A DNA stretch of 64,000 bases from Candidatus Vicinibacter proximus (GCA_016713905.1 JADJOE010000003.1:2071944-2135943), one strand, 5' to 3'. Counted from the first letter of the stretch, positions 10,793 to 53,859 are shown. Made by a program: numbers and translations. The notes: a model not told the origin generated them from the letters alone.

Positions 10793-10942
10793 GAAAATTT
10801 AATTAATTTTGGGAAAAGATATGCACACCTTTTGTTTCACCAATCCCTCCACCGATAGACAGACTTGTGCCACGAGGTGTTAGGTATATACGAGTTATAC
10901 CTAACCGTACAAAATTATAAAAACAGAGTATATTTGCATAAT

Positions 10943-11173
10943 ATGACAAAAACAACAATAATAAAAAACATAAATAGTCTTTTGGAATCAATAGAAGATC
11001 AAGAAATGCTTGAATCCATTTATGATCTTCTTGAAAATTATAGGAATTCCAAGACTTTAAACACATGGGATAAATTAACAATCGAACAAAAAAATAAAAT
11101 ATTGCAAGCATATTCCGAATCGGAGAATGATGAAAACTTAATCCCAATGGATAAAGTAATAAAAATGAAATGA
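10943..11173 (+). CDS. putative antitoxin (addiction-module component) paired with a ParE-like toxin
   Basis: 76 aa from the internal ATG (MTKTTIIKNINSLLESIEDQEML...). It is small and acidic, and its stop overlaps the toxin ATG (ATGA-type coupling). A TATATTTG box (TAnnTTTG) lies at 10929-10936. Confidence 0.6.
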   Translation: MTKTTIIKNINSLLESIEDQEMLESIYDLLENYRNSKTLNTWDKLTIEQKNKILQAYSESENDENLIPMDKVIKMK

Positions 11174-11461
11174 CGATATTTTTTTACTAGCTCAGCAACT
11201 AAAGATCTTGAAAATATTAACTCTTATTTATCGCAGCATTGGGGAGAGAATTCACAATTAAAGTTTGAATCTAAACTTAGGCATTCATTAAATTTATTAC
11301 CTTCTAATCCTAGACTGGGTATTTTAGAAAATGTTGCCAAAAATATTTATAGTATCCACGTGCATAAACATATCAGAGTTTATTATAGATTAACGCTTAA
11401 AAAGATAATAATCCTTTCACTTTTCGATGTTAGACAAAACCCAAATCTTCGCCCAACGTGA
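11170..11461 (+). pseudogene. RelE/ParE-family toxin, frameshifted in a T7 run
   Basis: ATG 11170 reads MTIFFY* . The frame shifted forward by one nt reads RYFFTSSATKDLENINSYLSQHWGENSQ...IRVYYRLTLKKIIILSLFDVRQNP. Removing one T from the run at 11179-11185 restores MTIFFTSSATKDLENI... Confidence 0.75.
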
Positions 11462-11713
11462 CATGGCCGGTTGGGTATAACATGGCATAGACTCCACACC
11501 GCCAGCTAGAAGAAGTCTTTCATAATAAGCTGTATTTGTTTAGCAAGAGTTTAATTGTTATTTTTTGGTTTAAAGGGTTAGGTGGTGCAGCGTCTATGCC
11601 AAAACCGTTGTGCGACAGCTTAGAAAACCGACACCTGACAAAATCACGAGAAATATTGTTTCTAATTTTGGAAACTTTTATTATCTTTGTGACGTTTAAC
11701 AAGACAGTATTGA

Positions 11714-12055
11714 ATGAGATTTTTCGAGACAAAATTTTTAGAAGAAGCGGACGACTTTATTTCACAACTTGACCCGAAGACCATTAAGAAAATCTTTTAC
11801 AATATTGACCTTGCTGAACAGACCAATGACCCAAAACTTTTTAAGAAACTTCAAAATGACATTTGGGAGTTTCGGACAATGTTCGCAGGACTTCAAATCA
11901 GACTTCTTGCATTTTGGGACAAGACAGATAATAAGGAAACTTTGGTAATAGCGACCCACGGTTTCGTAAAGAAAGTTGACAAGGTTCCGGCAAACGAAAT
12001 TGACCGGGCAGTAAGACTGAGAGACAAATATTTTAAAAACAAACATAAAAAGTAA
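11714..12055 (+). CDS. RelE/HigB-like toxin (Gp49/DUF891 type)
   Basis: 113 aa (...IWEFRTMFAGLQIRLLAFWDK...LVIATHGFVKK). The toxin-first arrangement is followed 4 nt later by an XRE antitoxin. A TATCTTTG box lies at 11682-11689. Confidence 0.8.
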   Translation: MRFFETKFLEEADDFISQLDPKTIKKIFYNIDLAEQTNDPKLFKKLQNDIWEFRTMFAGLQIRLLAFWDKTDNKETLVIATHGFVKKVDKVPANEIDRAVRLRDKYFKNKHKK

Positions 12056-12059
12056 TCAT

Positions 12060-12386
12060 ATGGCAACTAAAGAATTAAAGACTTACTCACTTGCCGAGAT
12101 GAAAGATAAGTATATCGGCAAAGTCGGGACACAAGAGCGTGACGAGTACGAATATGAACTTCGTATGGACGTTTTAGGTAAAATGATTAAAGCCGCAAGA
12201 CAAGAAAGAAACTTGACACAAGAAGAACTTGGACGACTTGTTGGGGTTCAGAAAGCTCAAATTTCAAAACTTGAAAGCAGTGCTAACAGTGCGACAATCG
12301 ACACCATTATCAAAGTGTTTAGAGCATTAAAAGCAGAAATCAATTTTAACGTAAAACTTGAAGACAACTTTGTCAAAATCGCCTGA
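12060..12386 (+). CDS. XRE-family HTH antitoxin (HigA-like)
   Basis: 108 aa with HTH LTQEELGRLVGVQKAQISKLES. It lies immediately downstream of the HigB-like toxin. Confidence 0.85.
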   Translation: MATKELKTYSLAEMKDKYIGKVGTQERDEYEYELRMDVLGKMIKAARQERNLTQEELGRLVGVQKAQISKLESSANSATIDTIIKVFRALKAEINFNVKLEDNFVKIA

Positions 12387-12483: not shown

Positions 12484-12745
12484 GACAATTTAGTTTTCCA
12501 AAATCCCCCACTGCACCAAGCATGGAAACGTTTTGAGAAAACTAATTCAAAATAATTCGATAAACTCTTCTCTATATTTAACAACAAATAAATTTAAAAA
12601 CATTTATTCCGTAATACAAGAATTCATGACTATTGGTTGCAATTTAAAGTAGAGCAACCAAAGCAACGGAAATCAAGTCCGGATGTCGTAAGGTTTTGTG
12701 ATGGAAAAATCAGGGTGGATTATTAAGTTTCTTACTAAATTCGCT
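12484..12745. repeat. direct repeat, copy 1 (partner at 21063-21325)
   Basis: The 60-mer at 12541-12600 is identical to 21121-21180, an offset of exactly 8,580 bp. By eye there are about 9 mismatches over about 200 nt (12538-12740). Weaker homology extends upstream to about 12484. Confidence 0.9.
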
Positions 12746-12934: not shown

Positions 12935-13075
12935 ATGAAAATTGAATTTGAAGTTTCTAATGAAGAATACTATAATCCTGAATTTGTTGCTAAAATTGAG
13001 AAGAGCAGACAAGACTTTAAAGATGGCAAAGGCAAAGCATATACTACAGAACAACTTAATGCATTATGGAAGTAA
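12935..13075 (+). CDS. short antitoxin candidate partnered with YoeB (N-terminal region lacks a start)
   Basis: MKIEFEVSNEEYYNPEFVAKIEKSRQDFKDGKGKAYTTEQLNALWK. Its stop overlaps the yoeB start by 10 nt. The in-frame upstream sequence (TKTIEEVDAIKAALHA) looks like more of the same protein but has no start codon. Confidence 0.5.
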   Translation: MKIEFEVSNEEYYNPEFVAKIEKSRQDFKDGKGKAYTTEQLNALWK

Positions 13076-13323
13076 TTTTTCTTCCTAATGCTGAAGAAGA
13101 TCTTAATTTGTGGGTATCGACTGGAAATAAATCCATCCTCAAAAAAATAGCTCAACTTGTCAAAGGCATTAAAGCCAATCCCTTTGATGGCATCGGCAAA
13201 CCTGAACCACTAAAACAAAATCTATCAGGCGCTTGGTCTGGCAGAATCAACAAAGAACATCGACTTGTTTATGAAATTATTGACGATAAAATTTTAATTC
13301 TATCTGCTAAAGGGCATTATTGA
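13066..13323 (+). CDS. yoeB: Txe/YoeB-family toxin
   Basis: 85 aa with close resemblance to YoeB (GKPEPLKQNLSGAWSGRINKEHRLVYEI...GHY). The C-terminal His-Tyr and the Glu of GKPEPL are retained. Confidence 0.9.
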   Translation: MEVIFLPNAEEDLNLWVSTGNKSILKKIAQLVKGIKANPFDGIGKPEPLKQNLSGAWSGRINKEHRLVYEIIDDKILILSAKGHY

Positions 13324-13743
13324 TCATATAATTTTAGTATAGAAATTATGTGCTTCTAAAAATTTCATAATATTCGCCCATTGCTCCTCATTGCAATCAA
13401 ATTCCAACGTATATTTATTTTTATTCACTAAGTAAATATTTAGTACATAGTGATCATGCTTGCCTCGCTTTTCACGTGTCTTAATATATTCTATATTGCT
13501 ATTATTAATATTTACATTTGATTTTTTAGGAAAAAAGTAAAAAGCTTTAATTTCCGTATCTGTAAAATGAAGCAAATAACATTTTTGGGCAGAAACAAAT
13601 ATAAAAAGGAAAATAACTAAACCTACTGCTAACTTACCTATTAGATGAATATTGCTACTAAAAATTACTAGGAATGCTATTATATAAACAGCTATCAATA
13701 TATACTCTCTTCTTAATTGTTTTTGATTATCAATAATTAACAT
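13324..13743 (-). CDS. putative immunity protein (2-TM) for the adjacent orphan Rhs-CT
   Basis: 139 aa with two TM helices, then a soluble tail. It starts 19 nt after the CT stop and has the same architecture as the 14658..15122 ORF. Confidence 0.6.
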   Translation of the reverse strand: MLIIDNQKQLRREYILIAVYIIAFLVIFSSNIHLIGKLAVGLVIFLFIFVSAQKCYLLHFTDTEIKAFYFFPKKSNVNINNSNIEYIKTREKRGKHDHYVLNIYLVNKNKYTLEFDCNEEQWANIMKFLEAHNFYTKII

Positions 13744-13762
13744 AAATGCTTAAGAGTATAAA

Positions 13763-14419
13763 TTAATTTTTAAATAAATTTTGAATATCAAATAAATCCG
13801 AAATATTGGAATTTAATTGAATTAGACTTTTTTCAGAATTTATAGTTTTTAAATTAATTTGATTAAGAGAAGTATTAATCCCTCTAAGGCCAAATATTGC
13901 ACTTCCATAATCTACTAATTTACTTTCTTTATTTGTGGCATCATTATATATATCGGCAGCAGAAAATCCAAAATTTAAAGCTTCAATTCCAGCAATTGCA
14001 ATTTTTGCTCCTTGTATACCCTTTGCAGCAAGCCCAACCCCTGTCACAGTCGAAGCAATATTTGCCATTTGTAGATTAACACTAAGTGTTTTCTTTAAAG
14101 CAAATTTAAACCCATCTGGTCCCTTAAGTTTAACTTCATCAGATGGCTTATTATCAAATATGTTATTAATAACCCTATTCACATTGCCTACAAATCCTTC
14201 AGGATAACTATAAGTGTCTTCCTTTGGCTTATCACTTGGTTGAGGTGTTGGTGTTGGCGTGCAACTTGATGGAGGACATGTGGAAGTTTCTGGTGCTTTT
14301 TTCTTAGGATCACCTCCACCATCAGAATCTTCCTCACTCATTCCAGTTGGATCTATTATTCTTATTGGGTTATTAAATCCATATCGATATGGATTCCAAC
14401 TAGGTGTTTTTTCTTCCAT
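13763..14419 (-). CDS. orphan Rhs C-terminal toxin cassette (core-end motif plus unknown CT)
   Basis: Begins ...SWNPYRYGFNNPIRIIDPTGM (PxxxxDPxGM core-end motif). A Pro/Thr linker follows, then a CT with a Gly/Ala-rich amphipathic stretch (GVGLAAKGIQGAKIAIAGIEAL). No Rhs core lies upstream. Confidence 0.75.
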   Translation of the reverse strand: MEEKTPSWNPYRYGFNNPIRIIDPTGMSEEDSDGGGDPKKKAPETSTCPPSSCTPTPTPQPSDKPKEDTYSYPEGFVGNVNRVINNIFDNKPSDEVKLKGPDGFKFALKKTLSVNLQMANIASTVTGVGLAAKGIQGAKIAIAGIEALNFGFSAADIYNDATNKESKLVDYGSAIFGLRGINTSLNQINLKTINSEKSLIQLNSNISDLFDIQNLFKN

Positions 14420-14650
14420 TGGATCGGCACTATATCAAATTTATGCTGCTAGTTCATACACCTAACATTTTAGGGTATACAAATATAACAATTCTTCTTC
14501 TGTCAGTGGGGCTGAAAAAAAATAAAAGTCTTTCAGTTAGTCTTCTTAATGGCAGAATTTATAATCAGATGCCGATGCAATCCTTGTCAAAATTATTAGG
14601 CACAAAGCACAGATTTCCGCCAATAGAAGGTAGAATACTTCAGTAAAAGA
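14420..14650 (-). repeat. decayed rhs core homology upstream of the orphan CT (copy 1)
   Basis: Aligns by eye with 15819-16023, with identity declining away from the CT. It contains stops in all frames. Confidence 0.6.
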
Positions 14651-14657
14651 AATAATT

Positions 14658-15122
14658 CTATGGTAAACTTTTTATGTTTTCATTTGATAAATACGAGTCT
14701 ATTCTATTAATATTTACTTTCAAATCTATTAATGTTCTAAATAATTTTTCAGAATTTTTTAAACTCATTGCAATAACATGTTTTACAATTTTTACATTAT
14801 TTCTTTCTTTTATGTAAACCGTTGTGTAATGTCCCCGTTTATAAGAAAAGTAGATTTTAATTTCCTCAATCAGATCTAAATTGTAAAAATATTCCTTTTT
14901 AATAAAAAGCATAAAATACTTTAAAAAAAGGTCTTTATTTGTTACGACAATTTCAGCTTTAGATTTCATTGACCAATAAAAAAGGTAAGTTATTGCTACA
15001 ATTGCTAGTGTCGAAAATAATTTTGCTGAATTCCAAAACCAAAACAGCATAATAAGGATAAATCCCAAAGGTAGATTTTCAATAATATTATGTTTAAAAT
15101 AATATAATTTCCTTGCTGACAT
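14658..15122 (-). CDS. putative immunity protein (2-TM) for the adjacent orphan Rhs-CT
   Basis: 154 aa with two TM helices (LPLGFILIMLFWFW, LAIVAITYLFYW). It starts 3 nt after the CT stop. Confidence 0.6.
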   Translation of the reverse strand: MSARKLYYFKHNIIENLPLGFILIMLFWFWNSAKLFSTLAIVAITYLFYWSMKSKAEIVVTNKDLFLKYFMLFIKKEYFYNLDLIEEIKIYFSYKRGHYTTVYIKERNNVKIVKHVIAMSLKNSEKLFRTLIDLKVNINRIDSYLSNENIKSLP

Positions 15123-15125
15123 AAA

Positions 15126-15818
15126 CTATTTAGGTTTTTTATTAATTTGATTAGATAACTCATATGCATCTTTTATATCACCAATATTTCCAACTCCTGG
15201 TTTTGCTTCAAAATGAGATTTCCAACCACCGAGTGTCGCATTAACTAATTTATTTAATTTTGCTCCATTTTCCCCTAAAGTAAATTCAGTGAAATTAAAT
15301 CCAGTTAAATCATTTATTAAATCATTCGCATCATTACCCATTCCATACATTGTTATTCCATTTCCAAGAATAGAAGCCCCTTTTTTAAAATTTAAAGCAG
15401 CAAAACCTTCTCCTAATGAAAAAACATTTAAAATAACTGAAGCTTGTTTGCTGGCTATCTTTAGAACTGCAACCGTTCCACCTTCGCCTTTCAAATCTTG
15501 CTCTTTAACGCCATAGAAATTTTCTGTTGCGGACACTAATTTGTTATTCCATGATCTATTTTCTTTAACTTCAGGAGTCATGCTAGAATAAACTCCTTTA
15601 TCCTTGCCCTCGTTATCTGTCCATTTATAATCCTGATTTTTATCAGTCCGATTAAAACATCCATCAGAATCACACCATGAATTTCCAGTAAAATTTTTAG
15701 GTGGAAATTTAGCTTCTTCTTCTCCCATTCCAGTTGGATCTATTATTCTTATTGGGTTATTAAACCCATAACGATAAGGATTCCAGTTGGGAGCTTTTTC
15801 TGCTAGTGGATCGACCAC
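15126..15818 (-). CDS. orphan Rhs C-terminal toxin cassette (paralogue of 13763..14419)
   Basis: GTG start. It reads VDPLAEKAPNWNPYRYGFNNPIRIIDPTGM, then a CT with LKGEGG..., AALNFKKG and NDLIND motifs that parallel the other orphan. About 40 nt around the motif are nearly identical to 14341-14380. Confidence 0.75.
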   Translation of the reverse strand: MVDPLAEKAPNWNPYRYGFNNPIRIIDPTGMGEEEAKFPPKNFTGNSWCDSDGCFNRTDKNQDYKWTDNEGKDKGVYSSMTPEVKENRSWNNKLVSATENFYGVKEQDLKGEGGTVAVLKIASKQASVILNVFSLGEGFAALNFKKGASILGNGITMYGMGNDANDLINDLTGFNFTEFTLGENGAKLNKLVNATLGGWKSHFEAKPGVGNIGDIKDAYELSNQINKKPK

Positions 15819-16023
15819 ATACCACTTCTGTACTTAATAATCATAATCCTAACTTTTTAGGTCATACAAAGATAAAAGATATTTATTCTTCAAGCAATGG
15901 GGAGGCAAGAATAAAAAACTTGTTGGCAGATTACTTGATGATAGAACTTATGATCAAATGCCAATGCATTCCTTCTAATAATTATCAGCACAAGTTGAAA
16001 ACCTGTGCCAAAATGGGGATTAT
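15819..16023 (-). repeat. decayed rhs core homology upstream of the orphan CT (copy 2)
   Basis: Homologous to 14420-14650. The stretch GATTATGATTATTAAGTACAGAAGTGGTATGTGGTCGATCC aligns, with one indel, to the ARYYDPRISVWYGVDP coding sequence of the 16604..17428 fragment. Confidence 0.6.
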
Positions 16024-16626
16024 TTAAATATCGCCATTCATCTTTAACATTAATTCAACATCTTTCTTTTCATTAATTGCATTAAGTCTTGTGACTATGG
16101 ATTGAATACCTCTTTGTCGATTGATTAAGTGTTGTTCATAAAAAAATAATGACATTTTTAAATTATTATTTTCAAAATAAGAAAGAGCCAATAGATATCT
16201 TGCATCATTAATTATTGATTTATTAGTATTGTTCTTTATTTTTTCATTCTTTCCAACAATTTGATTAAGGCTGTTAATTGCCTCGATATGTAATTTATTT
16301 GCTCGTAATATTAATGCATAATTATATAAACAATAAGAATCATTAGGTGCTATTTTCATGTATTTTTTGGAAACTTTTAAAGCCTTTTCATATTCTCTTA
16401 ATTCATAAAATGCTAGCCCATACTCGACAAGAATCCAATAGTCAAAATCAACTACATACTTTTCGTTTTTTAGAATTGATAGCAATTCGATTATTGTTAC
16501 ATATTTTTTATTATGATTTAATTTGATAATAATCTCATGTAATCGATCCAGATATTTTCGAATCAAAACTGGGTCTTTCTTATTTGAGTAATTTAAAATT
16601 TTACTAATCAATTGATGATTTGTCAT
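16024..16626 (-). CDS. putative immunity protein, TPR-like
   Basis: 200 aa, helical, with TPR-type repeats (EYGLAFYELREYEKALKVSKKYMKIAPND...). Its ATG lies 23 nt inside the 3' end of the upstream Rhs-CT ORF. Confidence 0.6.
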   Translation of the reverse strand: MTNHQLISKILNYSNKKDPVLIRKYLDRLHEIIIKLNHNKKYVTIIELLSILKNEKYVVDFDYWILVEYGLAFYELREYEKALKVSKKYMKIAPNDSYCLYNYALILRANKLHIEAINSLNQIVGKNEKIKNNTNKSIINDARYLLALSYFENNNLKMSLFFYEQHLINRQRGIQSIVTRLNAINEKKDVELMLKMNGDI

Positions 16627-17428
16627 TTTTTACTCTTTTATTAGGATTAGGGTCCTGTTTAAATTTTTTATTTTTATCTCCTTTATTAGAATTTCTTTGG
16701 TCACCAGTTCTTTCACCTGGTCTTACTTTAGTATGCTTGTCGTTACTTGATTTACTTTTACTTGTAGTGTGCTTAACTTCTTGTTGACGCTGTTTAATTG
16801 ATTCAATTCTTTTATTAGTCTTCTCAGTAGGTGTTTTTCGGGCCTCAACTTTAGAAGGGCTAGCTAAATTGCTTAAGGCAGTTGTAGTTGTTGCTGCGCC
16901 ATGAACTACAGCGGCTGTTGCTACTGGCGTTGCCAAAGCAGTAGCTCCTCCAGATGGTAATGCAAATGCAACAGCTGCAGCACCTCCAACAAACCCGACA
17001 GCAGTTTCAACAATTCCAACAGCTGCTGCAATTACGTCACCCGTTGTTTGCCCATATTCAGCTGCTTGTGCATAATTTCCAAATTGATTTGGGTCACCTC
17101 TTCCAGCACCAGCTAACATATTTGAAGAAACTGCATTTACAGCACCTGCAACAAAAGCAGTTGTATTTGCAGCGGCTTCTTTAAGCCAAGCAGGAGGGTC
17201 TGGCCACTTTCCATCAGGATCAGTATAAATTATTGGATTATTGAATGTATATATGTAAGGAGAATACTCTAATCCATCTTCTGTCAATGGATCGACACCA
17301 TACCACACCGATATCCTAGGATCATAATACCTCGCCCCAAAATAATAAAGTCCGGTCTCCTCATCAACCTCCTTACCCGTGAACCTATACTTCGTAGAAT
17401 AGCCCCCAGCTTTCTGTTCGGCCAGCAA
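16604..17428 (-). CDS. Rhs core end plus C-terminal toxin domain (3' portion of a disrupted rhs)
   Basis: YRFTGKEVDEETGLYYFGARYYDPRISVWYGVDPL...SPYIYTFNNPIIYTDPDGKW is followed by a Gly/Ala-rich hydrophobic region and a Lys-rich tail. Only a TTG start is available, and it is in frame with the upstream pseudogene. Confidence 0.7.
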   Translation of the reverse strand: MLAEQKAGGYSTKYRFTGKEVDEETGLYYFGARYYDPRISVWYGVDPLTEDGLEYSPYIYTFNNPIIYTDPDGKWPDPPAWLKEAAANTTAFVAGAVNAVSSNMLAGAGRGDPNQFGNYAQAAEYGQTTGDVIAAAVGIVETAVGFVGGAAAVAFALPSGGATALATPVATAAVVHGAATTTTALSNLASPSKVEARKTPTEKTNKRIESIKQRQQEVKHTTSKSKSSNDKHTKVRPGERTGDQRNSNKGDKNKKFKQDPNPNKRVKNDKSSID

Positions 17429-17570
17429 GTTCCACTTTTAGACTTCACACTAAAGTAATCTTTATTTTTCAATCTTGGTTTTCATCAAGCCGATTGCAGG
17501 GGCAATCGGTTCCCTTCTTATCGAGTGATCTTTATCACTCGATTGGCGCAGTAGCGCCACCAGTCGGTCA
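17429..17570 (-). other. in-frame insertion of about 140 nt in the rhs core with three adjacent tetraloop hairpins
   Basis: It lies between LPFGD and LLAEQKAGGYSTKYRFTGKE. The hairpins are 17490-17509 (8 bp), 17521-17542 (9 bp) and 17544-17559 (6 bp). Three in-frame stops lie at 17462-64, 17450-52 and 17438-40. Confidence 0.6.
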
Positions 17571-18098
17571 TCACCGAAAGGCAAATATAGGATAAATTGA
17601 TAAGGATTTCCAGCCTCATCTGTTAAATATGTGCTTGATCCAATGTGATCTGGATGGAAGAAATATGTTACATTATTGGTGTTTATTACATGCCACTTTC
17701 GTGGTTCACTCCCTTGAAGCACTGTCGTGCTTCATTCCGACAAAATCGTCGGAAATCGGTCGCTCATCTTCACAGTCGTCTTCTTCTGGATCAGTATCTT
17801 CAATAATTAAGGTGTCGAATCCAAATTCAGTTCTGATTAATTCCAGATCTTCTGCTTGTCTATCAGGAAGTCCTGCTTTTTCTGATCCCGATAACTCTAG
17901 ACTGTTGTCAACACTACTATCTACAGAACCAACTAATTTACAAGCTATTCTTTCAGTACCTGAATAATAATGATTCGTGACCATGTAATGTGGTCCCATA
18001 ACCATGTAGCCACTGACATATTGAGCATAATTTCCTACAGTAGCATTGGTCTGGCTTTGTCCATTTAGATTCACTACAGCATAATTACAAATATTGAA
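17462..18098 (-). pseudogene. rhs core 3' fragment, 5'-truncated and frameshifted
   Basis: ...HYYSGTERIACKLVG... (frame A) is followed by YFFHPDHIGSSTYLTDEAGNPYQFILYLPFG (frame B). The frameshift lies near 17706-17722. Homology stops at about 18098, so no N-terminal or YD-repeat body is present. Confidence 0.8.
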
Positions 18099-18144
18099 TT
18101 ATATTTTTGTAATGAATAGAATGTTCATCTAAAAAACATTTTTT

Positions 18145-18726
18145 ATGCATTACAATCCCAATACGGTGAGCGAGTATCGTGTGTTTATGATACTCAAGAA
18201 TTTTTCATCCAAGACAATAAAAACATATCTCAAGATTGCCGACTAATTTTTGATATATTTTGACGCACGGTATCTCAATGAGTCAATGTGTGATGATCCG
18301 GTATGGAAATATCTGATAGATCGATTTGAAAAAGGTCTAGCATGGTCCCCTTAAGGGGAATTTAATTCCGATAATCCTCTATTCCAAAATTATTCAAGAA
18401 TGTCTTATTTCTCCCCTGGAGCTTAACCAAGCTTCCTAGGCCAAAAAAAGAAACTAAACTTCGATCCATCCTTTCAAAGTAGGACGTGTAGCATGAATAA
18501 TTCTTCTACCACATTTAAACATCAGTTCATCCTTTCACCAATTTATGCTAAAGGATGCAGGTTGAGCGAATTGAGAAACCATTGTCTGAATGATGTGGAA
18601 GGCAATCGAAATGAGATCCGCATCAATCCGAACATAGCTTAAACGAAGGTCAAGGGATTTAAAGTTACTATTAAAAGTGTCATTCCTTTGAATAATCTCA
18701 TTGAATTCATAGGAAACCCCTTGTAG
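18145..18726 (+). pseudogene. tyrosine recombinase remnant, N-terminal and central part, with four in-frame TAA codons
   Basis: A single frame reads MHYNPNTVSEYRVFMILKNFSSKTIKTYLKIAD*FLIYF...KHQFILSPIYAKGCRLSELRNHCLNDVEGNRNEIRINPNIA*TKVKGFKVTI...LNNLIEFIGNPL*. This covers the SAM-like N-domain and the Arg-I region. TAA codons lie at 18244, 18352, 18424 and 18640. Confidence 0.8.
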
Positions 18727-18858
18727 TTTAATTAATTAAACCGTATGTTTGTAGAGGATACGATATTTTATAGGGTCTATCTGACGAAAATTAGTCAGAA
18801 ATGCATTATTTTGTCAAGCAAAGTATTAAATTAAAAGCAAGGATCTAAATGAATATAT

Positions 18859-20952
18859 ATGAAGTCTAGATATATTTTGGCAATAGCGATGTTTATTCAA
18901 GCTATTAATTGCCATGCGCAATGGAATCAAACCGACGGCCCATACGGCAATACGGATGTTTTGTCAATAATCCCAGATGACTCAATAATATTTACATTAA
19001 CAAACTGTGGATTGTTTTCTAAAAAAACAATAAATAATGATTGGAATCTAAAAAATCCCCATTTATTTTTTTCTTCTTATACTAAAATAAAAGATAGCCT
19101 TTTTGTTGTCAACAATGGTATAAAACTAATTGATTTATTGAATCCTGAGAATTCGCCTACTAACATTTCCACTTTACCTTTTTCTACACTGACACATTCT
19201 GATTCCTGTATTTATGGAGGAGGAAGTCCTTTAGGATTTTATAAATCAAACAATTTTGGGAAAACGTGGATTAGGCATAACACTGGCTTGCCAATCGACA
19301 CAGGTTCAAAGCCGGATCCCCCATATTATTATATTATTTATGATATAAAATCTGTAGAAATGACCTCAAAATATATCTTTTGCGGAACGACTAAAGGAGT
19401 TTACAGAAATTCTGAAATGCTAGCAACATGGACACCAGTTAATTCTGGATTACCTTTATCTACTGTTTCCTTTATAAAATCATTTAATGATACGCTTTTT
19501 GTTGCAATTGGAAATAGTTTATTTAAAAGTTTAGATTTTGGTAACAATTGGACCTTAATATTTAATTCCCCTTCTTCCATAACAACTGTCCTAAAAGTAA
19601 ATAATCAATATTTAGTTGGAAGTTCCAATAATGGTATACACTATTCAATAGATAATGGTAAACGATGGAATACTTTAAATACTGGTTTACCAGATTTGAG
19701 TATCACGACTCTTGTTTACTATGATTCCATGATAATTTGTGGAACAAAATCCAAGGGTATTTTTTATAATCACAATGGCCAATGGATTACTAATAAATCT
19801 GGATTAATTTGTTCGAATATTAAATCATTGGCTAAAACAAAATCCGGATTGGTCGCAAATGATATAAATAACGTTTATGTTTCAAATAATGGAACCAACT
19901 GGGATTCAGTAAACACACCAAACATACCCAAGTATCCCAAACTAGGATCTGGAATTGGGTCTTTGGCAACTAATGGTGATACCATTTATATAAGTTATCA
20001 CTACAGCACTCCTATTGCACCATTTTTTTACTCTTATATCAGATACACGAAAGACAATTGTAACACTTGGGACGAATTACTAACAAATCTTCCTTACACA
20101 TTAAACGGCAAGCTTTATAAGATTTATCATGAAAATAATAGATTTTTTGCATATGTAGATAATAAAATATACTATACCGATAACTCAGGACTAAACTGGA
20201 TAAATATAAGCCTTCCCTCTAAATATTGTAATCAAATTAAAGCATTTGTTAATTATAACTCCATCCCTTTTATAGCCACCTGTGGTGATGCACAACTTTT
20301 AAGGCTTGATAGTAACCAAAGTTGGGTCTTGTCAAATAATGGACTACCACCCAACGGAAAACCGATATCTTTAGTCAGTTGTGAAGGTGCGCTATTTGTG
20401 TATATTCAAAATTATGGGATGTTCGTTAGTTTTGACAACGGGAATTATTGGACTTTTGCAAATAATGGGCTGGTTACAAATATTTCAATCCGTGACTTTG
20501 CATACATCGGTAATAATTTATTTATATCTAGCAATTATGGCGTCTATTTCACAAATGATTTCGGCCAAAACTGGGTTTCCATTAATAATGGATTGATCAA
20601 CTTAGACCTGAGTTCAATAAAAATAATGAATGATACTTTATATGTTGGCACATATGGAAATGGAATTTGGAAACGAAGCCTCCATGAAATTCCTGTGAAT
20701 ACACAAGACCCCCCACAATCAGATAAATCATTTATAATTTATCCTAACCCAGCTTCAGATTATATTCATGTTGCTAATAATTCTAATGCAGCAAGCTTCA
20801 AAATTATTGATATGATTGGGAAAGAAGTATTGTCTGGTAACTTAGAACCACAACATGAAATTAATATTTCGAAAATAATAGATGGTGCATATATATTCTT
20901 GATTCATTCAGGCACAAAAGTTCAGATGATGAAATTCTTAATTAATAAATGA
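18859..20952 (+). CDS. BNR/Asp-box repeat protein with T9SS C-terminal sorting domain
   Basis: 697 aa with a signal peptide and repeated SxDxGxxW boxes (SNNFGKTW, SLDFGNNW, SIDNGKRW, TNDFGQNW...). The C-terminus IIYPNPASDYIHV...KFLINK is typical of a T9SS CTD. Confidence 0.8.
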   Translation: MKSRYILAIAMFIQAINCHAQWNQTDGPYGNTDVLSIIPDDSIIFTLTNCGLFSKKTINNDWNLKNPHLFFSSYTKIKDSLFVVNNGIKLIDLLNPENSPTNISTLPFSTLTHSDSCIYGGGSPLGFYKSNNFGKTWIRHNTGLPIDTGSKPDPPYYYIIYDIKSVEMTSKYIFCGTTKGVYRNSEMLATWTPVNSGLPLSTVSFIKSFNDTLFVAIGNSLFKSLDFGNNWTLIFNSPSSITTVLKVNNQYLVGSSNNGIHYSIDNGKRWNTLNTGLPDLSITTLVYYDSMIICGTKSKGIFYNHNGQWITNKSGLICSNIKSLAKTKSGLVANDINNVYVSNNGTNWDSVNTPNIPKYPKLGSGIGSLATNGDTIYISYHYSTPIAPFFYSYIRYTKDNCNTWDELLTNLPYTLNGKLYKIYHENNRFFAYVDNKIYYTDNSGLNWINISLPSKYCNQIKAFVNYNSIPFIATCGDAQLLRLDSNQSWVLSNNGLPPNGKPISLVSCEGALFVYIQNYGMFVSFDNGNYWTFANNGLVTNISIRDFAYIGNNLFISSNYGVYFTNDFGQNWVSINNGLINLDLSSIKIMNDTLYVGTYGNGIWKRSLHEIPVNTQDPPQSDKSFIIYPNPASDYIHVANNSNAASFKIIDMIGKEVLSGNLEPQHEINISKIIDGAYIFLIHSGTKVQMMKFLINK

Positions 20953-21062
20953 AAAATTAAACCCCATAAAAGCTCTTTAGAAAATTGGTGTTTGTGCGGC
21001 TAAATGAACCTTCCAGACTTAAGCAGGACAAGTTGTGCTTACTATCAAGGTCTGCACTGAAG

Positions 21063-21325
21063 GACAATTTCTTGCTCCGAAATCCTGCACGAACGCAAAG
21101 CCGCAAAACGTTGTACGAAAACTAATTCAAAATAATTCGATAAACTCTTCTCTATATTTAACAACAAATAAATTTAAAAACATTTATTCCATAATACAAG
21201 AATTCATGACTATTGGATGCAATTTAAAGTAGATAAACCAAAGCAACGGAAATCAAGTCCGGATGTGGTAAGGTTTTGTGATGGAAAAATAAGGGTGGAT
21301 TATTAGGTTTCTGATTAAATTCACT
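21063..21325. repeat. direct repeat, copy 2 (partner at 12484-12745)
   Basis: See copy 1. This copy lies between the BNR gene stop and the stop of the sensor kinase. Confidence 0.9.
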
Positions 21326-21345
21326 GTCAGCTATTCTAACAAGGT

Positions 21346-24030
21346 TCAATCCTTCTGAAACTTTAATCTTTCCTTCACAAAATAATTTAGATAAAATTCC
21401 ATTTTCATTTGTACCAACTTCCACTTTTCATCCAACTCCTCAGAAGAGGTTTCAATGGGTAGACCATGAATTAACTGTTCCAGATCAAACAAACTGAATC
21501 GCCGCAGGCTGTTTACCAGCTTGTGTAGTATTCTATCTCTGAGCCCCGCATCATGCTGATCTACGGCGGTCTTAAAACCACTCATCGCATCTTGCCACTC
21601 AGCTATCAGGATTTCCAGTGCCCGCAACACTTTATCTTTTTGAAAATCATAATCCCGATACAACACTTCCACATCCGGTGCCGGATAAGTTTGCAGTGCT
21701 GCCAACTCATTAACGCGCTGAATTAATTTCTGAGGACTCACCGGTTTTTGTATTACGGCATCAAATATTTCCTCTCCTTCTGTGCTGACTCTCGAAATGT
21801 CGTGTGCACCTGTAACGCATACGATCGCGCCTCCATCCGGTTTAAATTTTCTGAGTTCACTCAGATGATCCACAATCTTAAAATCATCAAAATTATAATC
21901 CGTTAGTATGAGTTCAAACAAAAGACCGGGGGACAGTTCTTTAAGTTCATCGGGGTGATGAAGCTGTACATATTTTATTCCTGGCTTATCAAAAATATGC
22001 TTGTACAATAACTGAATCTGCGGATCATCATCGATCACCAAAATATTTTTATAACGATCATCAATACTCACAGGAAGTAAAGATTTGCTGACATTTGATT
22101 TTTGGTCCAGCACTTTCAGTTCCATTGCAAAAGAAAAATCAGATCCTTTGTTTAACTCCGATTTAATTTCCAGTTTGCTGCCAAACAAATCAAGCATCTG
22201 CACGACAATCGGCAAGCCTAATCCTACCCCATGAATGTTGCTGATGCCTTGACCGGAATCCATTTTCTGGAATCTTTGATGAATCAGATTTATCTGATCT
22301 GCCTGAATACCGATGCCCGTATCGGAAACTTCAAAAAATAATTTAAACTGTCCATCCTGAATTTGGCTGCCCTTTACTCTAAGCGTTATTTTGCCTTCGG
22401 CATGTGTAAACTTCAGTGCATTGGACAACAGGTTGTTGATGATCTGACTGAGTCTCAATCCATCAGTTTTAAAAACTTTTCCCTCTATGGTCTTGTCTAA
22501 AATTAATTCCAGCTCAATTTTTTTGGTCCTTGCTTCAAACAAGTATGCTTTGTGTATTTGTTGCAGCAACTGATCCAATTGAATCGGTTCACTTTGCAAA
22601 GTAATTTGCCCTTCTTTTAGTTTTGAATAATCGAGTACATCATTGACCAGCGCCAGTAAATTATCCGAACTGAATTTCAAGCTTTCTATTAAAGGCAATT
22701 GCTCAGACTTTGGATTGTTTTCAGCAAGCATTCTGGACATGCCGATGATGGTATGCAAGGGGTTGCGAATCTCATGACTCATGTTCTGCAGAAATTCTTC
22801 TTTTTGCCTGTTTGCTTCTTCTGCTTCATCTCTTGCTTTGGCAAGCGTATGAATATTTTGCTGGATAGTTTGTGACATGGAAGAAAAACTGCGCGCCAAC
22901 ATTCCTATTTCATCGTTCTGATGAATGGGTAGTTTTTCAGTAGAGAGATTTTGTCCAAAACTCGTCATGGATTTGGTGATGGACTCCAAACTCAAGGTCT
23001 GTTTTCTTAACCACCACAATGCTAAAAAAACAACTGCCAATACTATGAATAAAGTAATCAATAATATGGATCCCTGCCATCGGTAGAAAGGCACCAATAA
23101 AGTTTCCCTTGAGGCTTGCAAGCCCAGTATCAGGAAATAATCCTTCCGTGGATAATTAATTTTTTTATAGGCCAACAGATTTTTTTCTGTAGCAGAGGAG
23201 TGTATTTTCGATTGATCAGACTGCAAATTTTTGAGGTCAATTTTCAAATCCACAAATCCCGCAGGTTGTAAATTGTGTTCAAATCCAAATTCTTTTGCGG
23301 GATCAGGATGTGTAAGATAATATCCCTGATGGTTCATCAGATAGAGTTCAAATTCTTTTGGAACCGTCTTCTTTAATTCATCCAGAAAGGCATTCAGATT
23401 GGCATTGATGATGATGATTCCAAAAGTAGTATCCTGTATGAAAATCGGACAAGCCACTCTCAGTGTGCTCATCTGCGGATTACTTATTTTTCCATGCTCC
23501 TTGTTCAGGTCAATCACTGAAAAATAAACGGAATCTTCCGGGTAAGTCAAGGTCTCCTGAAAATAAGAACTGAATCCCTTTTGTTGCAATTGATCGCGCT
23601 GCACCAGATGGATTCCTTTTTCGAATTGATCAACGCGGATAATTTCCTGTCCTGCATTTTCCTTTCCAATGATTCGCAATTGTGCATAGTCAGGTCGGCT
23701 GGACATAAAACTGATGTAATCTTCTCCAAGTTTATTTCTCATCAATGGTACTCCTGACTGATACATGCTTTTGATGTAATCTTTCAGAAATGCGCTGCGC
23801 GAAAGAAAGAGAATGTCTTTTCGGATGTTGTTGATGTAAGAATTGATTTTCACATCCAGGATCTCAACGGTATGAGACAATTGTTGTTCAGAAGAAGAAA
23901 TGACTATGTTGGAACTAATGCGGTAAAGGAAAAAACCTATTAGCGAACTACTCAACAAAATGAGCAGGATGTACACCACTGCATTTTTTACGGCCAGTGA
24001 TACAAAACGATCTTTTCCAAATATATTCAT
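21346..24030 (-). CDS. hybrid sensor histidine kinase / response regulator
   Basis: 894 aa with two TM helices flanking a sensor domain of about 290 aa. H-box EEFLQNMSHEIRNPLH, ATPase G-box GVGLGLPIV, a receiver (ILVIDDDP...LILTDYNF) and a C-terminal helical (HPt-like) region are present. Confidence 0.9.
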   Translation of the reverse strand: MNIFGKDRFVSLAVKNAVVYILLILLSSSLIGFFLYRISSNIVISSSEQQLSHTVEILDVKINSYINNIRKDILFLSRSAFLKDYIKSMYQSGVPLMRNKLGEDYISFMSSRPDYAQLRIIGKENAGQEIIRVDQFEKGIHLVQRDQLQQKGFSSYFQETLTYPEDSVYFSVIDLNKEHGKISNPQMSTLRVACPIFIQDTTFGIIIINANLNAFLDELKKTVPKEFELYLMNHQGYYLTHPDPAKEFGFEHNLQPAGFVDLKIDLKNLQSDQSKIHSSATEKNLLAYKKINYPRKDYFLILGLQASRETLLVPFYRWQGSILLITLFIVLAVVFLALWWLRKQTLSLESITKSMTSFGQNLSTEKLPIHQNDEIGMLARSFSSMSQTIQQNIHTLAKARDEAEEANRQKEEFLQNMSHEIRNPLHTIIGMSRMLAENNPKSEQLPLIESLKFSSDNLLALVNDVLDYSKLKEGQITLQSEPIQLDQLLQQIHKAYLFEARTKKIELELILDKTIEGKVFKTDGLRLSQIINNLLSNALKFTHAEGKITLRVKGSQIQDGQFKLFFEVSDTGIGIQADQINLIHQRFQKMDSGQGISNIHGVGLGLPIVVQMLDLFGSKLEIKSELNKGSDFSFAMELKVLDQKSNVSKSLLPVSIDDRYKNILVIDDDPQIQLLYKHIFDKPGIKYVQLHHPDELKELSPGLLFELILTDYNFDDFKIVDHLSELRKFKPDGGAIVCVTGAHDISRVSTEGEEIFDAVIQKPVSPQKLIQRVNELAALQTYPAPDVEVLYRDYDFQKDKVLRALEILIAEWQDAMSGFKTAVDQHDAGLRDRILHKLVNSLRRFSLFDLEQLIHGLPIETSSEELDEKWKLVQMKMEFYLNYFVKERLKFQKD

Positions 24031-27632: not shown

Positions 27633-27907
27633 TTTTTAGATTTTAGTTGCAAATTTAAAGATTAAACAACAAAATTCCCAATCTGGTTTTCAAGAGGGAC
27701 CATAGAAGCCGCATATTAAAAAGCCATGATCTTATTGAATCTCACGTATGGTGAAGCGTCTTTGTTAAAAGAATTAGGTAGCGGGATGCATTCAAAATGC
27801 TGTAATTATAATGCATCGCAGTTTAAAACTGCGACAAACAAAAGTGGTTAATTCTAGCCTCACGGCTTGAACTTTACGCAAGTTTTCAAGGCACAGATTT
27901 TAACGTA

Positions 27908-27960
27908 ATGTTTGACGCTGGGAAGTATGACTGAACGATCTCTGCTTCAGCAGAGTATCG
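27908..27960. repeat. repeat of about 50 nt, copy 1 (partner at 29771-29827)
   Basis: GTTTGACGCTGgGAAgTATGaCTGAACGATCTCTgCTtcAGCAgAGtATCGT compares with GTTTGACGCTGtGAAtTATGgCTGAACGATCTCTaCTgaAGCAtAGATCGT. Confidence 0.7.
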
Positions 27961-28223
27961 TGTGACAGCACGATAGGTGAAGGACTTGTCCGACCACTGG
28001 CGAAACTGCGAAAGCGGCTTCACGTACACTTTAATTGATACTGCTTTTATTCAATGTAATGTTTTATGCTGAGAAACATCAACCAACCTATTATTAATTT
28101 TCAAAGACTATAATTTTCAAATTAACTCATTAGCTCACTAACTGATTCTCACATTTTGTAATTTCTTGACTTGAAATACTTTAAAGTATTTAAAATTTTG
28201 TTAGATTTGTGAAAAATTCAATC

Positions 28224-29699
28224 ATGAAAATACTTTTTAGCACAATTTTAGTACTCCAATTAAGTTTTTCTTATTCGCAAATTGATTTTAAAACAGTTGA
28301 TGTAGATAAAATATCAAAGTCTTTTATCATAGATAAATTTTTAGGGTATAAAGATGGAATTTATTATTTCCAATACCTAATCATAAAAAATATAGTTCAA
28401 TTTGATCGAAAAAAAACACAAGGACTTGGCGTAGTTATGTTTGACAAAGATTTAAAAGAAATACGAAGATTTGAAGTAAGTGGTAAAGAAAAAAAAGAAA
28501 ATTTAATTGCAACTTACTTTAAGGATGGTAAATTACATTTAATAGCATCATATGACAATAAGGAAAATAAAATTATAAACCATTACTCATTTGATAATAG
28601 CGGCAATCGTATTGGTGCAATAGAATTACTGGTTACCGATGAAGATTCTAATATAGATGTAGATTTCTCATTGGATTCAAGTAAAATTTTAATAGTCAAC
28701 AAATTTGATCCTAATACAAAAAATGAAAATTGTAAATTAGATGCTTGTGTAATAGATAAAGATGGGAATTTGCAATGGAAGAAGTCCAGTTCACTAGGAA
28801 ATTCCAAGGAATTTGATTTCAAAGCATTCAAAATTAATAATGAAGGTAACCTTTATGTCATTATGCAAGCATTATCTAAAAATGATGCATATTCTTACAA
28901 TCTTTTTAATTTGAATAAAAATGGTTCACATACCACAAAGTTGGTCACAAGTGGGTACATCGGAATTGTAAAAATGTATGAAACAGAAGACGGTTGTTAC
29001 CTTACAGGATTCAATTATAATTTAAAAAAAGGAATTCATGTTAATCCATTTTTAGTTAGAATAAATGATAAAAAGACTGAATTAATAGTACCTAACGAAT
29101 CAATTAATGAAGACTATTTAGCACCGTTAATAAAAAATAAATTTTACAAAGATAAAGATGGTTGGTCTGGATATACTTCATTAGTACATGCTTGGAAAAA
29201 TGATAAATCTGAGCACAGAATTGTATGGGAAGCTTCATATTTAAGCATTGAAAAAGTTGGAGGAATCCAGTATAAATACAATGAGTGCAAACATTACTTT
29301 ATGTTTATTTACGATGCAAATGAAACATTGAAAGACATAAAAATTTGCCCAAAGGAATTGGCAACTGACGCTGATTACTTTATCTATCCGGTACAAAGTT
29401 TTGTTCAAAACGATATAATGTATGCTGTGTTTAATGAGCAAGAGAATAACATTAATCTTACTTCGATTGATAAATGGAAAAACAAAGGAGATCAAATACC
29501 TATTTTAAGAAGATTTAAACCAGATGGAAGTATCAAAGATATTAAGTTAAATAAAAACCTAAATAATCAAGGTGTGATTCCAAATGCATCCGGTTTAACT
29601 TCTGAAGGCAATTTGATATTTTACTTTGGCGAATTTAAATTTTTAAAAATTAAGGACTTTAAGATAGGTTTGATAAATATTAATAATTTTGAAAAATAA
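28224..29699 (+). CDS. hypothetical secreted protein, very AT-rich gene
   Basis: The ATG at 28224 gives MKILFSTILVLQLSFSYSQ (signal peptide). About 490 aa, Lys/Asn/Ile-rich, with no motif I recognise. Confidence 0.6.
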   Translation: MKILFSTILVLQLSFSYSQIDFKTVDVDKISKSFIIDKFLGYKDGIYYFQYLIIKNIVQFDRKKTQGLGVVMFDKDLKEIRRFEVSGKEKKENLIATYFKDGKLHLIASYDNKENKIINHYSFDNSGNRIGAIELLVTDEDSNIDVDFSLDSSKILIVNKFDPNTKNENCKLDACVIDKDGNLQWKKSSSLGNSKEFDFKAFKINNEGNLYVIMQALSKNDAYSYNLFNLNKNGSHTTKLVTSGYIGIVKMYETEDGCYLTGFNYNLKKGIHVNPFLVRINDKKTELIVPNESINEDYLAPLIKNKFYKDKDGWSGYTSLVHAWKNDKSEHRIVWEASYLSIEKVGGIQYKYNECKHYFMFIYDANETLKDIKICPKELATDADYFIYPVQSFVQNDIMYAVFNEQENNINLTSIDKWKNKGDQIPILRRFKPDGSIKDIKLNKNLNNQGVIPNASGLTSEGNLIFYFGEFKFLKIKDFKIGLININNFEK

Positions 29700-38865: not shown

Positions 38866-39328
38866 ACCAAAAGTTCCATAGCCTTAAATGATTTATATTG
38901 CCATGCAAAATAATGCGAAAACCTACCTAAATCATGAGCAGCAAATGCTTGAAGCCAGTACCAACGAAATGTAAGTGATAACGGAGTCCAGCTCTAAAAT
39001 ACTACACAAATCTCTCCACATGTCTTGACCAAAAATGGACATATTCAAAAAATTAGACAGATCAGATTAGGCTGCTAAACATGAACTTTTTCATAAAAAT
39101 CTTCTAATGGTGATTTTCTATTCAACCCATAATATGCATTATGGTTTCGATATTAAAGGCAAAAGATCTATAAAAACAAACGTTCCCATGAATGAACGGT
39201 CTTTGATTATCATCAAAGTAATGACCCACAGTCCATCAAGTTAACCATATTTTATTTTTCAACTAAATTTGGATATCCGTGATAAGATTAATTAGGTGAA
39301 TGATTAATTTTACCAAAAATACCAACTG

Positions 39329-39817
39329 TTGAATATTAATAAATTCCTAGAACTGGTCAAAAGCAAAAAGAAGCAACATCAGCAAGTCATTAAAAAGTTA
39401 AAAGGTACTAACACAAAAGTACTTGACCAAAATTTTCACCAAGCACATCAGGAAGTATTCACAGAATTCAATTGTCTCGAGTGTGCCAACTGTTGTAAAA
39501 CAACAAGTCCAAGACTTTATCCTATAGATATTGAAAGAATGGCACATGCATTACAAATGAGGCCATCAGAATTGATGGACAAGTATATTGTAATGGATGA
39601 AGATCAGGATTACGTTTTTCTTTCATCTCCTTGTCCTTTTTTGGAACAAGACAATACTTGCAGAATTTATGATTTCCGACCTAAAGCGTGTCGGGAGTAT
39701 CCACACACTGACAGAAAGAATATGATTCAAATTCTTGATCTCACCTATAAGAATATTGCTGTCTGTCCTGCAGTGTTCATAATGATAGAAAGAATTAAGG
39801 ATAAAATGAAATTGTAA
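39329..39817 (+). CDS. YkgJ-family cysteine-cluster protein
   Basis: 162 aa with a CLECANCCK cluster and a second cluster CPFL...CRIYDFRPKACREYP. TTG start. Confidence 0.75.
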   Translation: MNINKFLELVKSKKKQHQQVIKKLKGTNTKVLDQNFHQAHQEVFTEFNCLECANCCKTTSPRLYPIDIERMAHALQMRPSELMDKYIVMDEDQDYVFLSSPCPFLEQDNTCRIYDFRPKACREYPHTDRKNMIQILDLTYKNIAVCPAVFIMIERIKDKMKL

Positions 39818-53687: not shown

Positions 53688-53688
53688 T

Positions 53689-53859
53689 TTAATGCTTCTG
53701 GGTAATAAAAAATGTTCCGTATGTATTTGTTTCAAGTAACTTTGCCATCTCCTTCTTCGTATTTCCATCATTCCGCATTTGTTGATGATTACTGTATAAT
53801 AGTTCATTTGAAATCGAATTTGGAAAATCAATTGCGGAGCTCACAAGAACTAATCCCAT
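53689..53859 (-). pseudogene. relic 3' end of a second lipase gene
   Basis: Hand translation gives MGLVLVSSAIDFPNSISNELLYSNHQQMRNDGNTKKEMAKLLETNTYGTFFITQKH*. This parallels the C-terminus of the 55178..56647 product (VVPVSSAIDFPNSYKDQLLYSNHQQMRNDRNTK...). It lacks the Ser nucleophile region. Confidence 0.75.

Follow-up and report, generated by a model that had tools for sequence, protein, structure and literature searches.

How an array of toxin tips comes to stand on a chromosome with no gene beside it to deliver them is the question raised by a locus of Candidatus Vicinibacter proximus (GCA_016713905.1, JADJOE010000003.1:2071944-2135943); the whole stretch of DNA analysed, 64,000 nucleotides long, is called the window here. 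On its minus strand, positions 13324-18092 carry a 3' core fragment of an rhs gene and three pairs of open reading frames (ORFs), each pair consisting of a C-terminal toxin (CT) ORF and a small ORF that is its putative immunity gene. In Enterobacteria, orphan rhs-CT/rhsI modules provide immunity and form a silent reserve of toxins that recombination can join to the main rhs gene (PMC3150448, PMC3967940), and orphan Rhs-CT/RhsI pairs of Salmonella, with internal promoters and non-canonical start codons, behave like type II toxin-antitoxin (TA) modules (PMC7043789). A preliminary description of the present locus had taken it for the remains of a main rhs gene whose shell and delivery region disappeared on the spot. 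From the structure of the cassettes, their recurrence in other assemblies and the repeats that interrupt them, we consider it likely that the locus is instead a displaced ('satellite') array, made up of three orphan rhs-CT/immunity cassettes, on the chromosome of an activated-sludge member of the Saprospiraceae, and that it did not arise by the decay of a main rhs gene in place.

Three orphan cassettes and no deliverable rhs gene

A profile search for RHS and Rhs-associated core models matched TIGR03696 (Rhs_assc_core, NCBIfam) to all three CT ORFs (E 4.6e-20, 1.1e-4 and 9.3e-4) and gave a weak Pfam RHS match to an 86-aa ORF of the lead fragment. The ORF list reproduced the rhs 3' fragment and the three CT/small-ORF pairs of the preliminary description, with intact small ORFs and exactly the spacing it gave: a 23-nt overlap, a 3-nt gap and a 19-nt gap. 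All genes of the array are co-directional. In the order in which they would be read, the features are:

17204-18092, minus strand: rhs core fragment of cassette 1, truncated at its 5' end and carrying two insertions (tblastn)
17706-18074, minus strand: 122-aa ORF containing HYYSGTERIA and MVTNHYYSGTERIACKLVG (ORF list)
17462-17722, minus strand: 86-aa ORF in another frame, YFFHPDHIGSS...LYLPFG (ORF list; weak Pfam RHS match)
16604-17428, minus strand: 274-aa ORF with a TTG start, YRFTGKEVDEETGLYYFGARYYDP...NPIIYTDPDGKW followed by CT1 (TIGR03696, E 4.6e-20)
16024-16626, minus strand: putative immunity gene 1, a 200-aa TPR protein (ANAPC3/TPR matches, E 4.9e-7), overlapping the CT1 ORF by 23 nt
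15819-15993, minus strand: leader of cassette 2 (orphan 1), repeats D1/D3, of which the last ~27 nt are recognisable core
15126-15818, minus strand: ORF of cassette 2, 230 aa, GTG start, with CT2 (TIGR03696, E 1.1e-4)
14658-15122, minus strand: putative immunity gene 2, 154 aa, 3-nt gap after the CT2 ORF (ORF list)
14420-14605, minus strand: leader of cassette 3 (orphan 2) with decayed core codons (tblastn 14527-14339, 63 aa, 43% identity)
13763-14419, minus strand: ORF of cassette 3, 218 aa, ATG start, with CT3 (TIGR03696, E 9.3e-4)
13324-13743, minus strand: putative immunity gene 3, 139 aa, 19-nt gap after the CT3 ORF (ORF list)

Traced by tblastn with a 1034-aa relative and with full-length relatives, Rhs homology in the window is confined to 18092-17204, 15845-15726 and 14527-14339. 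Only the last ~220 core codons are kept at the locus, where the N-terminal delivery region and the complete YD-repeat shell are missing; no full-length rhs lies within the window, whose largest ORF does not exceed 940 aa, and the place of a main gene 5' of 18092 is taken by a recombinase remnant and a divergent gene for a substrate of the type IX secretion system (T9SS). These observations establish the identity of the cassettes and the absence of a deliverable gene at the locus, in agreement with the preliminary description. As in Rhs, the core ends in a PxxxxDPxG motif (NPIIYTDPDGKW and NPIRIIDPTGM), after which the variable CT begins. The GC content is 23-37% over most of the array and ~41-42% over 17000-18000, with flanks at ~40-44%.

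The core of cassette 1 corresponds approximately to residues 612-834 of the 1034-aa relative (tblastn identity 93.5% over 108 aa and 51% over 177 aa) and, its two insertions aside, is ~90% identical at the nucleotide level to the genes P0011 (422 aa) and P0013 (438 aa) when window 17200-18200 of the minus strand is aligned with them; these are intact versions of the lead fragment, and both are orphans themselves. The truncation noted earlier is real, although the edge of homology falls at ~18086-18092 and not at ~18098; the frameshift at 17706-17722 and the stop codons are likewise present, but they come from two discrete insertions of 93 nt and 147 nt (ins1 and ins2, described below) and not from scattered decay. 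The 274-aa ORF opens with MLAEQKAGGYSTKYRFTGKEVDEETGLYYFGARYYDP, passes NPIIYTDPDGKW and comprises the last 73 Rhs core residues, up to DPDGKW (17221-17204), before ending in a unique C-terminus. This tip, CT1, is unrelated to CT2 and CT3 and contains a hydrophobic Gly/Ala-rich stretch (residues 129-157) and a basic tail that it has in common with P0003. The exact 274-aa protein is present in the protein collection as P0001, and its best 120 relatives, from metagenomes and from metagenome-assembled genomes (MAGs) of Saprospiraceae, some of them named Candidatus Vicinibacter, are all short (155-474 aa) proteins described as 'RHS repeat-associated core'. Its neighbour, putative immunity protein 1, is a soluble TPR protein that occurs in identical form in 124 blocks of the collection, in two genomic contexts.

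Cassettes 2 and 3 restart, as had been described, about 25 codons before the end of the core. The ORF of cassette 2 retains 31 core-end residues, with NPIRIIDPTGM at residues 21-31 (DPTGM at 15740-15726), and that of cassette 3 retains 27, its motif ending at residue 27 (DPTGM at 14353-14339). Of the 200-230 nt of decayed core that had been placed upstream of each, ~27 nt (cassette 2) and ~108 nt (cassette 3) show core homology at the protein level; the remainder is common to both leaders, which are 74-78% identical (73.6% by blastn against 14328-14605), and its origin from core is not demonstrable by alignment. The two ORFs are 31% identical (BLASTP E 2e-21) in an alignment that includes the common core end, and putative immunity proteins 2 and 3 are not significantly similar to each other (E 0.09). 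Neither of the latter matches a family in Pfam or NCBIfam; the former has a hydrophobic N-terminal region, judged by eye, and the latter two N-terminal hydrophobic, transmembrane-like stretches, and immunity proteins embedded in the membrane would suggest toxins that act on membranes.

Homologues of the tips are small throughout: 175-303 aa for the relatives of CT1, 114-279 aa for all 11 homologues of CT2, and 48-296 aa for all six homologues of CT3 among 1.84 billion representatives, sizes that assembly fragmentation may have biased toward those of orphans. Since the homologues of CT2 and CT3 are all orphan-sized, these tips are unseen on deliverable Rhs proteins. The toxin tips are modular, some proteins of the CT2 family (P0164, P0029) carrying an N-terminal subdomain FE(S/T)E(E/D)EAKA.AK..GIK(T/I)GWFR... 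that also opens the CT of P0013 and that of a 3882-aa main Rhs protein in the assembly labelled L002.

The same cassettes in two chromosomal contexts

The two genomic contexts are those of the exact 200-aa TPR protein. Context A is that of the window and recurs in GCA_044227965.1 (L011) and in L014, which are 99.4-99.8% identical to it over the aligned stretches. In context B (GCA_044228225.1, that is L009, together with L010, L012 and L013) the same block of 274-, 200-, 230- and 154-aa ORFs forms part of a longer array downstream of an rhs gene, which in L010 and L012 encodes 1034 aa with a Peptidase_M91 tip; the flanks there are a T9SS-tail gene, an ABC-F gene and HMG-CoA reductase, and no recombinase lies within 10 kb of the arrays. 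The two contexts are joined by the following feature:

14340-17590, minus strand: recombination tract of 3.25 kb, with 0-1 differences per 100 nt against L010, L012, L013 and L009 (~99.95% identity)

Outside the tract the mismatch profile against L010 rises to 7-9% divergence at 17600-17990 (91-93% identity), and beyond that the sequences are unrelated. Over its whole length the tract departs from those arrays by no more than ~2 nt; within it the four ORFs of the block differ by 0-1 nt between the loci, immunity ORFs 1 and 2 being identical. The left edge coincides with the boundary between core and ins2 and the right edge with the DPTGM junction of cassette 3, after which locus B continues with a different CT/immunity pair. 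Such a tract has the form expected of the footprint of a recent homologous recombination through core repeats, and it bears out the earlier suggestion that the locus is a recombination substrate.

The core disrupted by both ins1 and ins2, with which the array of the window begins, is an internal orphan cassette in L009 (4982-5691, and from 8752 onward), L010, L012, L027 and L030, so the lead fragment of the window is of the orphan type and not the remnant of a resident main gene. With the same block standing downstream of an rhs gene at the other locus and the disrupted core internal there, a displaced orphan array is the better reading of the locus, and the claim that a main gene had lost its shell here is not supported. 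A classical layout of main gene and orphan array does exist in the clade, since in L002 (GCA_963852125.1) P0013 follows an uninterrupted 3882-aa SpvB/TSP_3/TcdB_toxin_midN/RHS protein and is itself followed by an rve (IS481-like) transposase gene and further ORFs of CT/immunity size. P0011 in L005, by contrast, is not preceded by any rhs gene over a distance of 10 kb.

At the site of the window the junction is fixed in the population: at least eight independent assemblies, drawn from three NCBI/ENA MAG sets, two JGI metagenomes and Logan assemblies, share the histidine kinase (the exact protein), the T9SS-substrate gene, a 785-nt spacer and the start of the 122-aa fragment, many of the contigs stopping inside the repeated core.

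The main rhs genes of close relatives (L001-L003, L010 and L029) are mostly broken or short at the N-terminus (2056, 761+598, 1034 and 860 aa), the 3882-aa protein of GCA_963852125.1 being the only uninterrupted one, and an rve (IS481-like) transposase gene lies between the main gene and the first orphan in L001-L004. L029, in which a T9SS sortilin-like gene is divergent from the 860-aa rhs, was considered as a syntenic locus and rejected, as its flanks are not homologous to those of the window.

Hairpin-rich insertions in the core

The two insertions in the core of cassette 1 are strings of perfect short hairpins, delimited by alignment with P0011 and P0013 (fold z-scores were computed against dinucleotide shuffles):

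17676-17768, minus strand: ins1, 93 nt, three stem-loops (RNA fold z -4.0)
17425-17571, minus strand: ins2, 147 nt (RNA fold z -7.2)

Ins1, the source of the frameshift, stands between EDDCE and (N)V.YFFHPDH in place of 16 nt of core. Ins2 lies between the codons for LPFG(E) and (M)AEQKAGGY, carries stop codons and ends ~0-10 nt 5' of the TTG start of the 274-aa ORF; it occupies the same core position in at least nine distinct orphan cassettes from several assemblies and is absent from main rhs genes and from P0011 and P0013. In other arrays, ins1-type copies are found both at the site seen in the window and at a second site, in the shell 5' of 'long orphans', where the element replaces 67 nt between two YDANG-repeat codons, so that the annotated ORFs of 97-224 aa end inside it. 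Shell fragments with such an element are L005 9240-9914, L009 539-1051 and L010 13838-14131. The presence of the insertions is polymorphic, some cassettes having ins2 without ins1.

A covariance model built from ten ins1-type copies matches copies of ins2 with E values of 1e-7 to 4e-3 (~1e-6 for that of the window), and by this measure ins1 and ins2 belong to one repeat family. In the ins1 alignment 93.9% of cells pair, against 30-40% in slid controls, and four pairs change on both sides, which was reached by 13 of 500 shuffles. Identity among eight cassettes is distributed as follows:

Hairpin part of ins2: 95-99%
Core adjacent to ins2: 85-94%
CT-proximal core: 56-71%

The family also occurs away from rhs genes. 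An intergenic copy at window 27926-28054 (plus strand; covariance model E 2.6e-5), with no rhs context, lies ~170 nt upstream of, and in sense orientation to, the ORF 28209-29699 (secreted, no Pfam match); it has the 5' motif AUGAnnGAACGAU and GACA/GAAA loops in common with the family, its stem sequences differ, and it folds unremarkably (z -1.1). A weaker match at 39187-39312 (plus strand), also intergenic and sense-oriented, is 17 nt upstream of a CxxCxxCC-domain ORF (39329-39817). No Rfam family was matched at the gathering threshold over the whole window or at E-value thresholds over 13000-19000, 20900-21450 and 27850-28230. Among GTDB representative genomes the ins2 pattern occurs in a single MAG, in three copies that are all within its rhs array, and ins2 is therefore not a high-copy miniature inverted-repeat transposable element; the ins1 pattern, which admits the variant of the window itself, occurs in three contigs of JGI metagenomes, all in rhs context. 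Neither terminal inverted repeats nor target duplications were seen at the hairpin-rich elements.

The family is probably a low-copy, structured, mobile repeat that invaded non-essential orphan DNA, its mobility being suggested by presence and absence among cassettes. We raise more tentatively, and with considerable doubt, the hypothesis that ins1, ins2 and their relatives form a mobile structured module with a function, and that this module is what defines an orphan rhs cassette in this lineage. Its candidate roles would be those of a leader RNA through which each cassette is expressed or stabilised, or of a signal by which read-through is silenced and recombination guided. A function of this kind would explain why the hairpins of ins2 are 95-99% identical while the flanking coding core is 85-94% identical, why the stems covary, and why the tract of recent exchange starts at the 5' edge of ins2. 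The family was undescribed before and is the sole unexplained feature of the locus.

Surroundings of the array

Next to the break in the lead fragment lies the recombinase remnant:

18172-18627, plus strand: Xer-like tyrosine recombinase remnant, N-terminal half with three in-frame stops (NF040815, recomb_XerA_Arch, 'site-specific tyrosine recombinase/integron integrase', E 5.8e-7)

It is colinear with NF040815 (14-165 against 2-149 of 263) and is transcribed divergently from the array. NCBIfam is the sole support for it, searches of Pfam and PHROG being without match, and it has no tblastx similarity to the integrase fragments of L029; its degraded state is kept in all assemblies seen. TA-like pairs of type II adjoin the array on the other side, Gp49/HigB-like with HTH_3 and DUF2683 with YoeB (window 11714-12386 and 12935-13323, both plus strand). 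A 220-nt direct repeat, 94% identical between 12526-12745 and 21106-21325 and without Rfam match, brackets an 8.6-kb segment that includes the YoeB pair, the rhs array, the recombinase remnant and the T9SS-substrate gene. These repeats may be the ends of an old island, and the locus looks like an old, immobilised one; no empty-site variant lacking the 8.6-kb segment was found among the assemblies covering the site.

Farther off, strains differ at window 10897-11605, where ~0.7 kb corresponds to ~2.7 kb in GCA_044227965.1 (L011 14477-17204) and in L014, the longer segment containing five ORFs (220, 213, 262, 78 and 34 aa). Direct repeats that are 74-84% identical and ~1488 nt apart (52420-52719/53908-54207 and 53756-53856/55245-55345) cross three neighbouring minus-strand ORFs, 52449-53831, 53937-55172 and 55178-56647, which are probably tandem paralogues.

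Origin and function of the array

That a complete main rhs gene once stood here, and that a deletion took its shell and delivery region and left its 3' end and its own orphans, could be argued from the position of cassette 1, which heads the array with the longest stretch of core, from the recombinase remnant directly upstream of the break (18172-18627), and from the frequent fragmentation of main rhs genes in related MAGs. Such decay in place is nevertheless unlikely in our estimation: the same form of core, with identical ins1 and ins2, is an internal orphan in other arrays, the 3.25-kb tract is nearly identical to a locus that has its own upstream rhs, and a longer rhs stands at the site in no assembly examined. 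A complete rhs that was merely collapsed or broken in assembly would be in keeping with the many contigs that end in repeated core, but the 785-nt spacer and the start of the 122-aa fragment recur behind the T9SS gene in at least eight assemblies made independently in different projects, and L011 and L014, at 99.4-99.8% identity, cover the array from end to end; an assembly error, which the preliminary description had named as a possible cause of the truncation, is extremely unlikely. Very unlikely, too, is an array assembled by a recombinase in the manner of integrons or of rAID-1, with capture by an Xer-type enzyme and the hairpin-rich elements serving as attC-like sites. A remnant resembling Xer enzymes and integron integrases does adjoin the array divergently, the hairpin-rich elements recur and have covarying stems, the array is low in GC, and orphan-immunity arrays with repetitive intergenic sequences are found in Bacteroidales as rAID-1 (10.1101/471110); yet the recombinase gene here has decayed to a pseudogene and is divergent from the array, where those of rAID-1 lie 5' of it in the same direction, the hairpin-rich elements sit within the core rather than in the spaces separating cassettes, long homology and not only element ends delimits the exchange tract, the arrays at locus B have no recombinase within 10 kb, and copies of the family also lie in unrelated intergenic regions.

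A different proposal concerns function and is compatible with a displaced orphan array: the Rhs-CT/immunity pairs may be autonomous and act inside the cell like type II TA modules, in addiction or growth control. Each CT ORF has a start codon of its own (TTG 17428, a GVG-type GTG at 15818, and ATG 14419), so a TA-like function as in Salmonella (PMC7043789) is possible; the 23-nt overlap and the 3-nt gap suggest that translation of the immunity ORFs is coupled to that of the CT ORFs, many relatives in the databases begin at MLAEQKAGGY or MAEQKAGGY, just 3' of ins2, and the homologues of CT2 and CT3 are all of orphan size. On the other side, the promoter signal does not exceed chance, the Bacteroidota-type TAnnTTTG motifs (17589, 15874 and 14487) are single unvalidated matches, and gene callers choose such starts by default. 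We regard this function as possible but doubtful. The earlier statement that the locus could act 'only' as an immunity reservoir or recombination substrate stands in its recombination part, while its 'only' is too strong in view of these starts and of the Salmonella precedent.

Taken as a displaced array of orphan cassettes, the locus presents the following picture. Cassette 1 is a 'long orphan' of ~220 core codons, its frame broken by two copies of the hairpin-rich repeat, and in cassettes 2 and 3 no more than 27-31 core codons are still intact. The small ORFs, all of them intact, would give immunity to the three types of toxin circulating in the population. Cassettes are swapped with rhs arrays elsewhere by homologous recombination, as the sequence mosaicism shows; the crossovers fall in the conserved core/ins2 segment and at the DPxG(M/K) junction, where the core has its 3' end, and a toxin tip can therefore be moved onto a deliverable rhs gene or off it. 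The CT ORFs might in addition be translated from their own starts; with the immunity genes they would then form TA-like pairs that keep the locus stable. By analogy with the enterobacterial modules, the array would thus offer immunity and a silent reserve of toxins that can be fused to a main rhs.

Several results weigh against this reading. CT1, CT2 and CT3 match no known toxin family in Pfam or NCBIfam, and the AlphaFold model of CT2, from an alignment of 12 sequences, was unusable (pLDDT 48.8). No homologue of CT2 or CT3 on a full-length Rhs was found in the databases searched, and their deployment through a main rhs is therefore argued by analogy. The closest relatives of the shell are mostly fragments of 575-860 aa. 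A sigma-70 promoter scan was at chance (32 sites against 28.6 expected), and a search for the Bacteroidota -33/-7 motif gave one match, at 15897-15867, that is not convincing.

Comparison with known systems

The locus is a known kind of orphan rhs array in a new lineage. Like the orphan modules of Enterobacteria (Poole et al. 2011, PMC3150448; Koskiniemi et al. 2014, PMC3967940), it consists of tandem units of core fragment, CT and immunity gene, keeps upstream core with in-frame stops, and undergoes exchange by homologous recombination in the core. It differs from them in having no main rhs directly upstream, in a core interrupted by hairpin-rich repeats, in tips (CT2 and CT3) unfound on full-length Rhs, and in the motif DPxG(M/K) where theirs is DPxGL; moreover, the enterobacterial modules belong to Rhs linked to PAAR/VgrG of the type VI secretion system, whereas the intact relatives of the cassettes in the window are SpvB/TcdB_mid/RHS giants and the host is one of the Saprospiraceae. 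With the Salmonella pairs (PMC7043789) the array shares non-canonical internal starts just 5' of the core-end motif and tightly linked immunity genes; a counterpart of their P2 promoter was not identified in the window.

The rAID-1 loci of Bacteroidales are orphan immunity arrays associated with a recombinase that is co-directional with and 5' of the array (Ross et al., 10.1101/471110), and are defined by an intact XerD-like recombinase at least 44% identical to BF9343_RS08045, at least two co-directional downstream genes with a GC content of at most 41%, and repetitive intergenic sequences (10.1101/471110). The locus resembles them in its Bacteroidota host, its co-directional array with immunity genes (GC 23-37% over most of it but ~41-42% over 17000-18000), its adjoining Xer-type recombinase and its repetitive structured sequences. 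It departs from them in that its recombinase survives as a divergent pseudogene, an N-terminal half containing three stops, the cassettes keep complete toxin tips, and the repeats lie in rhs core and leaders and not at regular intergenic sites. With its recombinase dead and divergent and its repeats not intergenic, the locus is not classed as rAID-1.

Small structured intergenic repeats are known to invade silent-cassette loci, as the neisserial Correia/NIME elements do in the maf and pilS regions, and pneumococcal BOX elements are another such family. The elements of the window are like them in being modular, hairpin-rich, low-copy repeats of ~90-150 nt that are found both in intergenic DNA and inside toxin or silent-cassette arrays, and unlike them in showing no terminal inverted repeats or target duplications and no similarity to Rfam families.

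Implications

These findings extend orphan rhs cassettes to environmental Bacteroidota, namely the Saprospiraceae of activated sludge, in which the intact relatives of the cassettes are Tc-toxin-like SpvB/TcdB/RHS giants. At the level of the population, the data show cassettes being shuffled between two chromosomal loci by way of core homology. If functional, the hairpin-rich repeat family would mean that polymorphic toxin loci have a further level of regulation or recombination. An array without means of delivery can be stably fixed in a population, a state that fits selection for immunity or addiction and not for attack.

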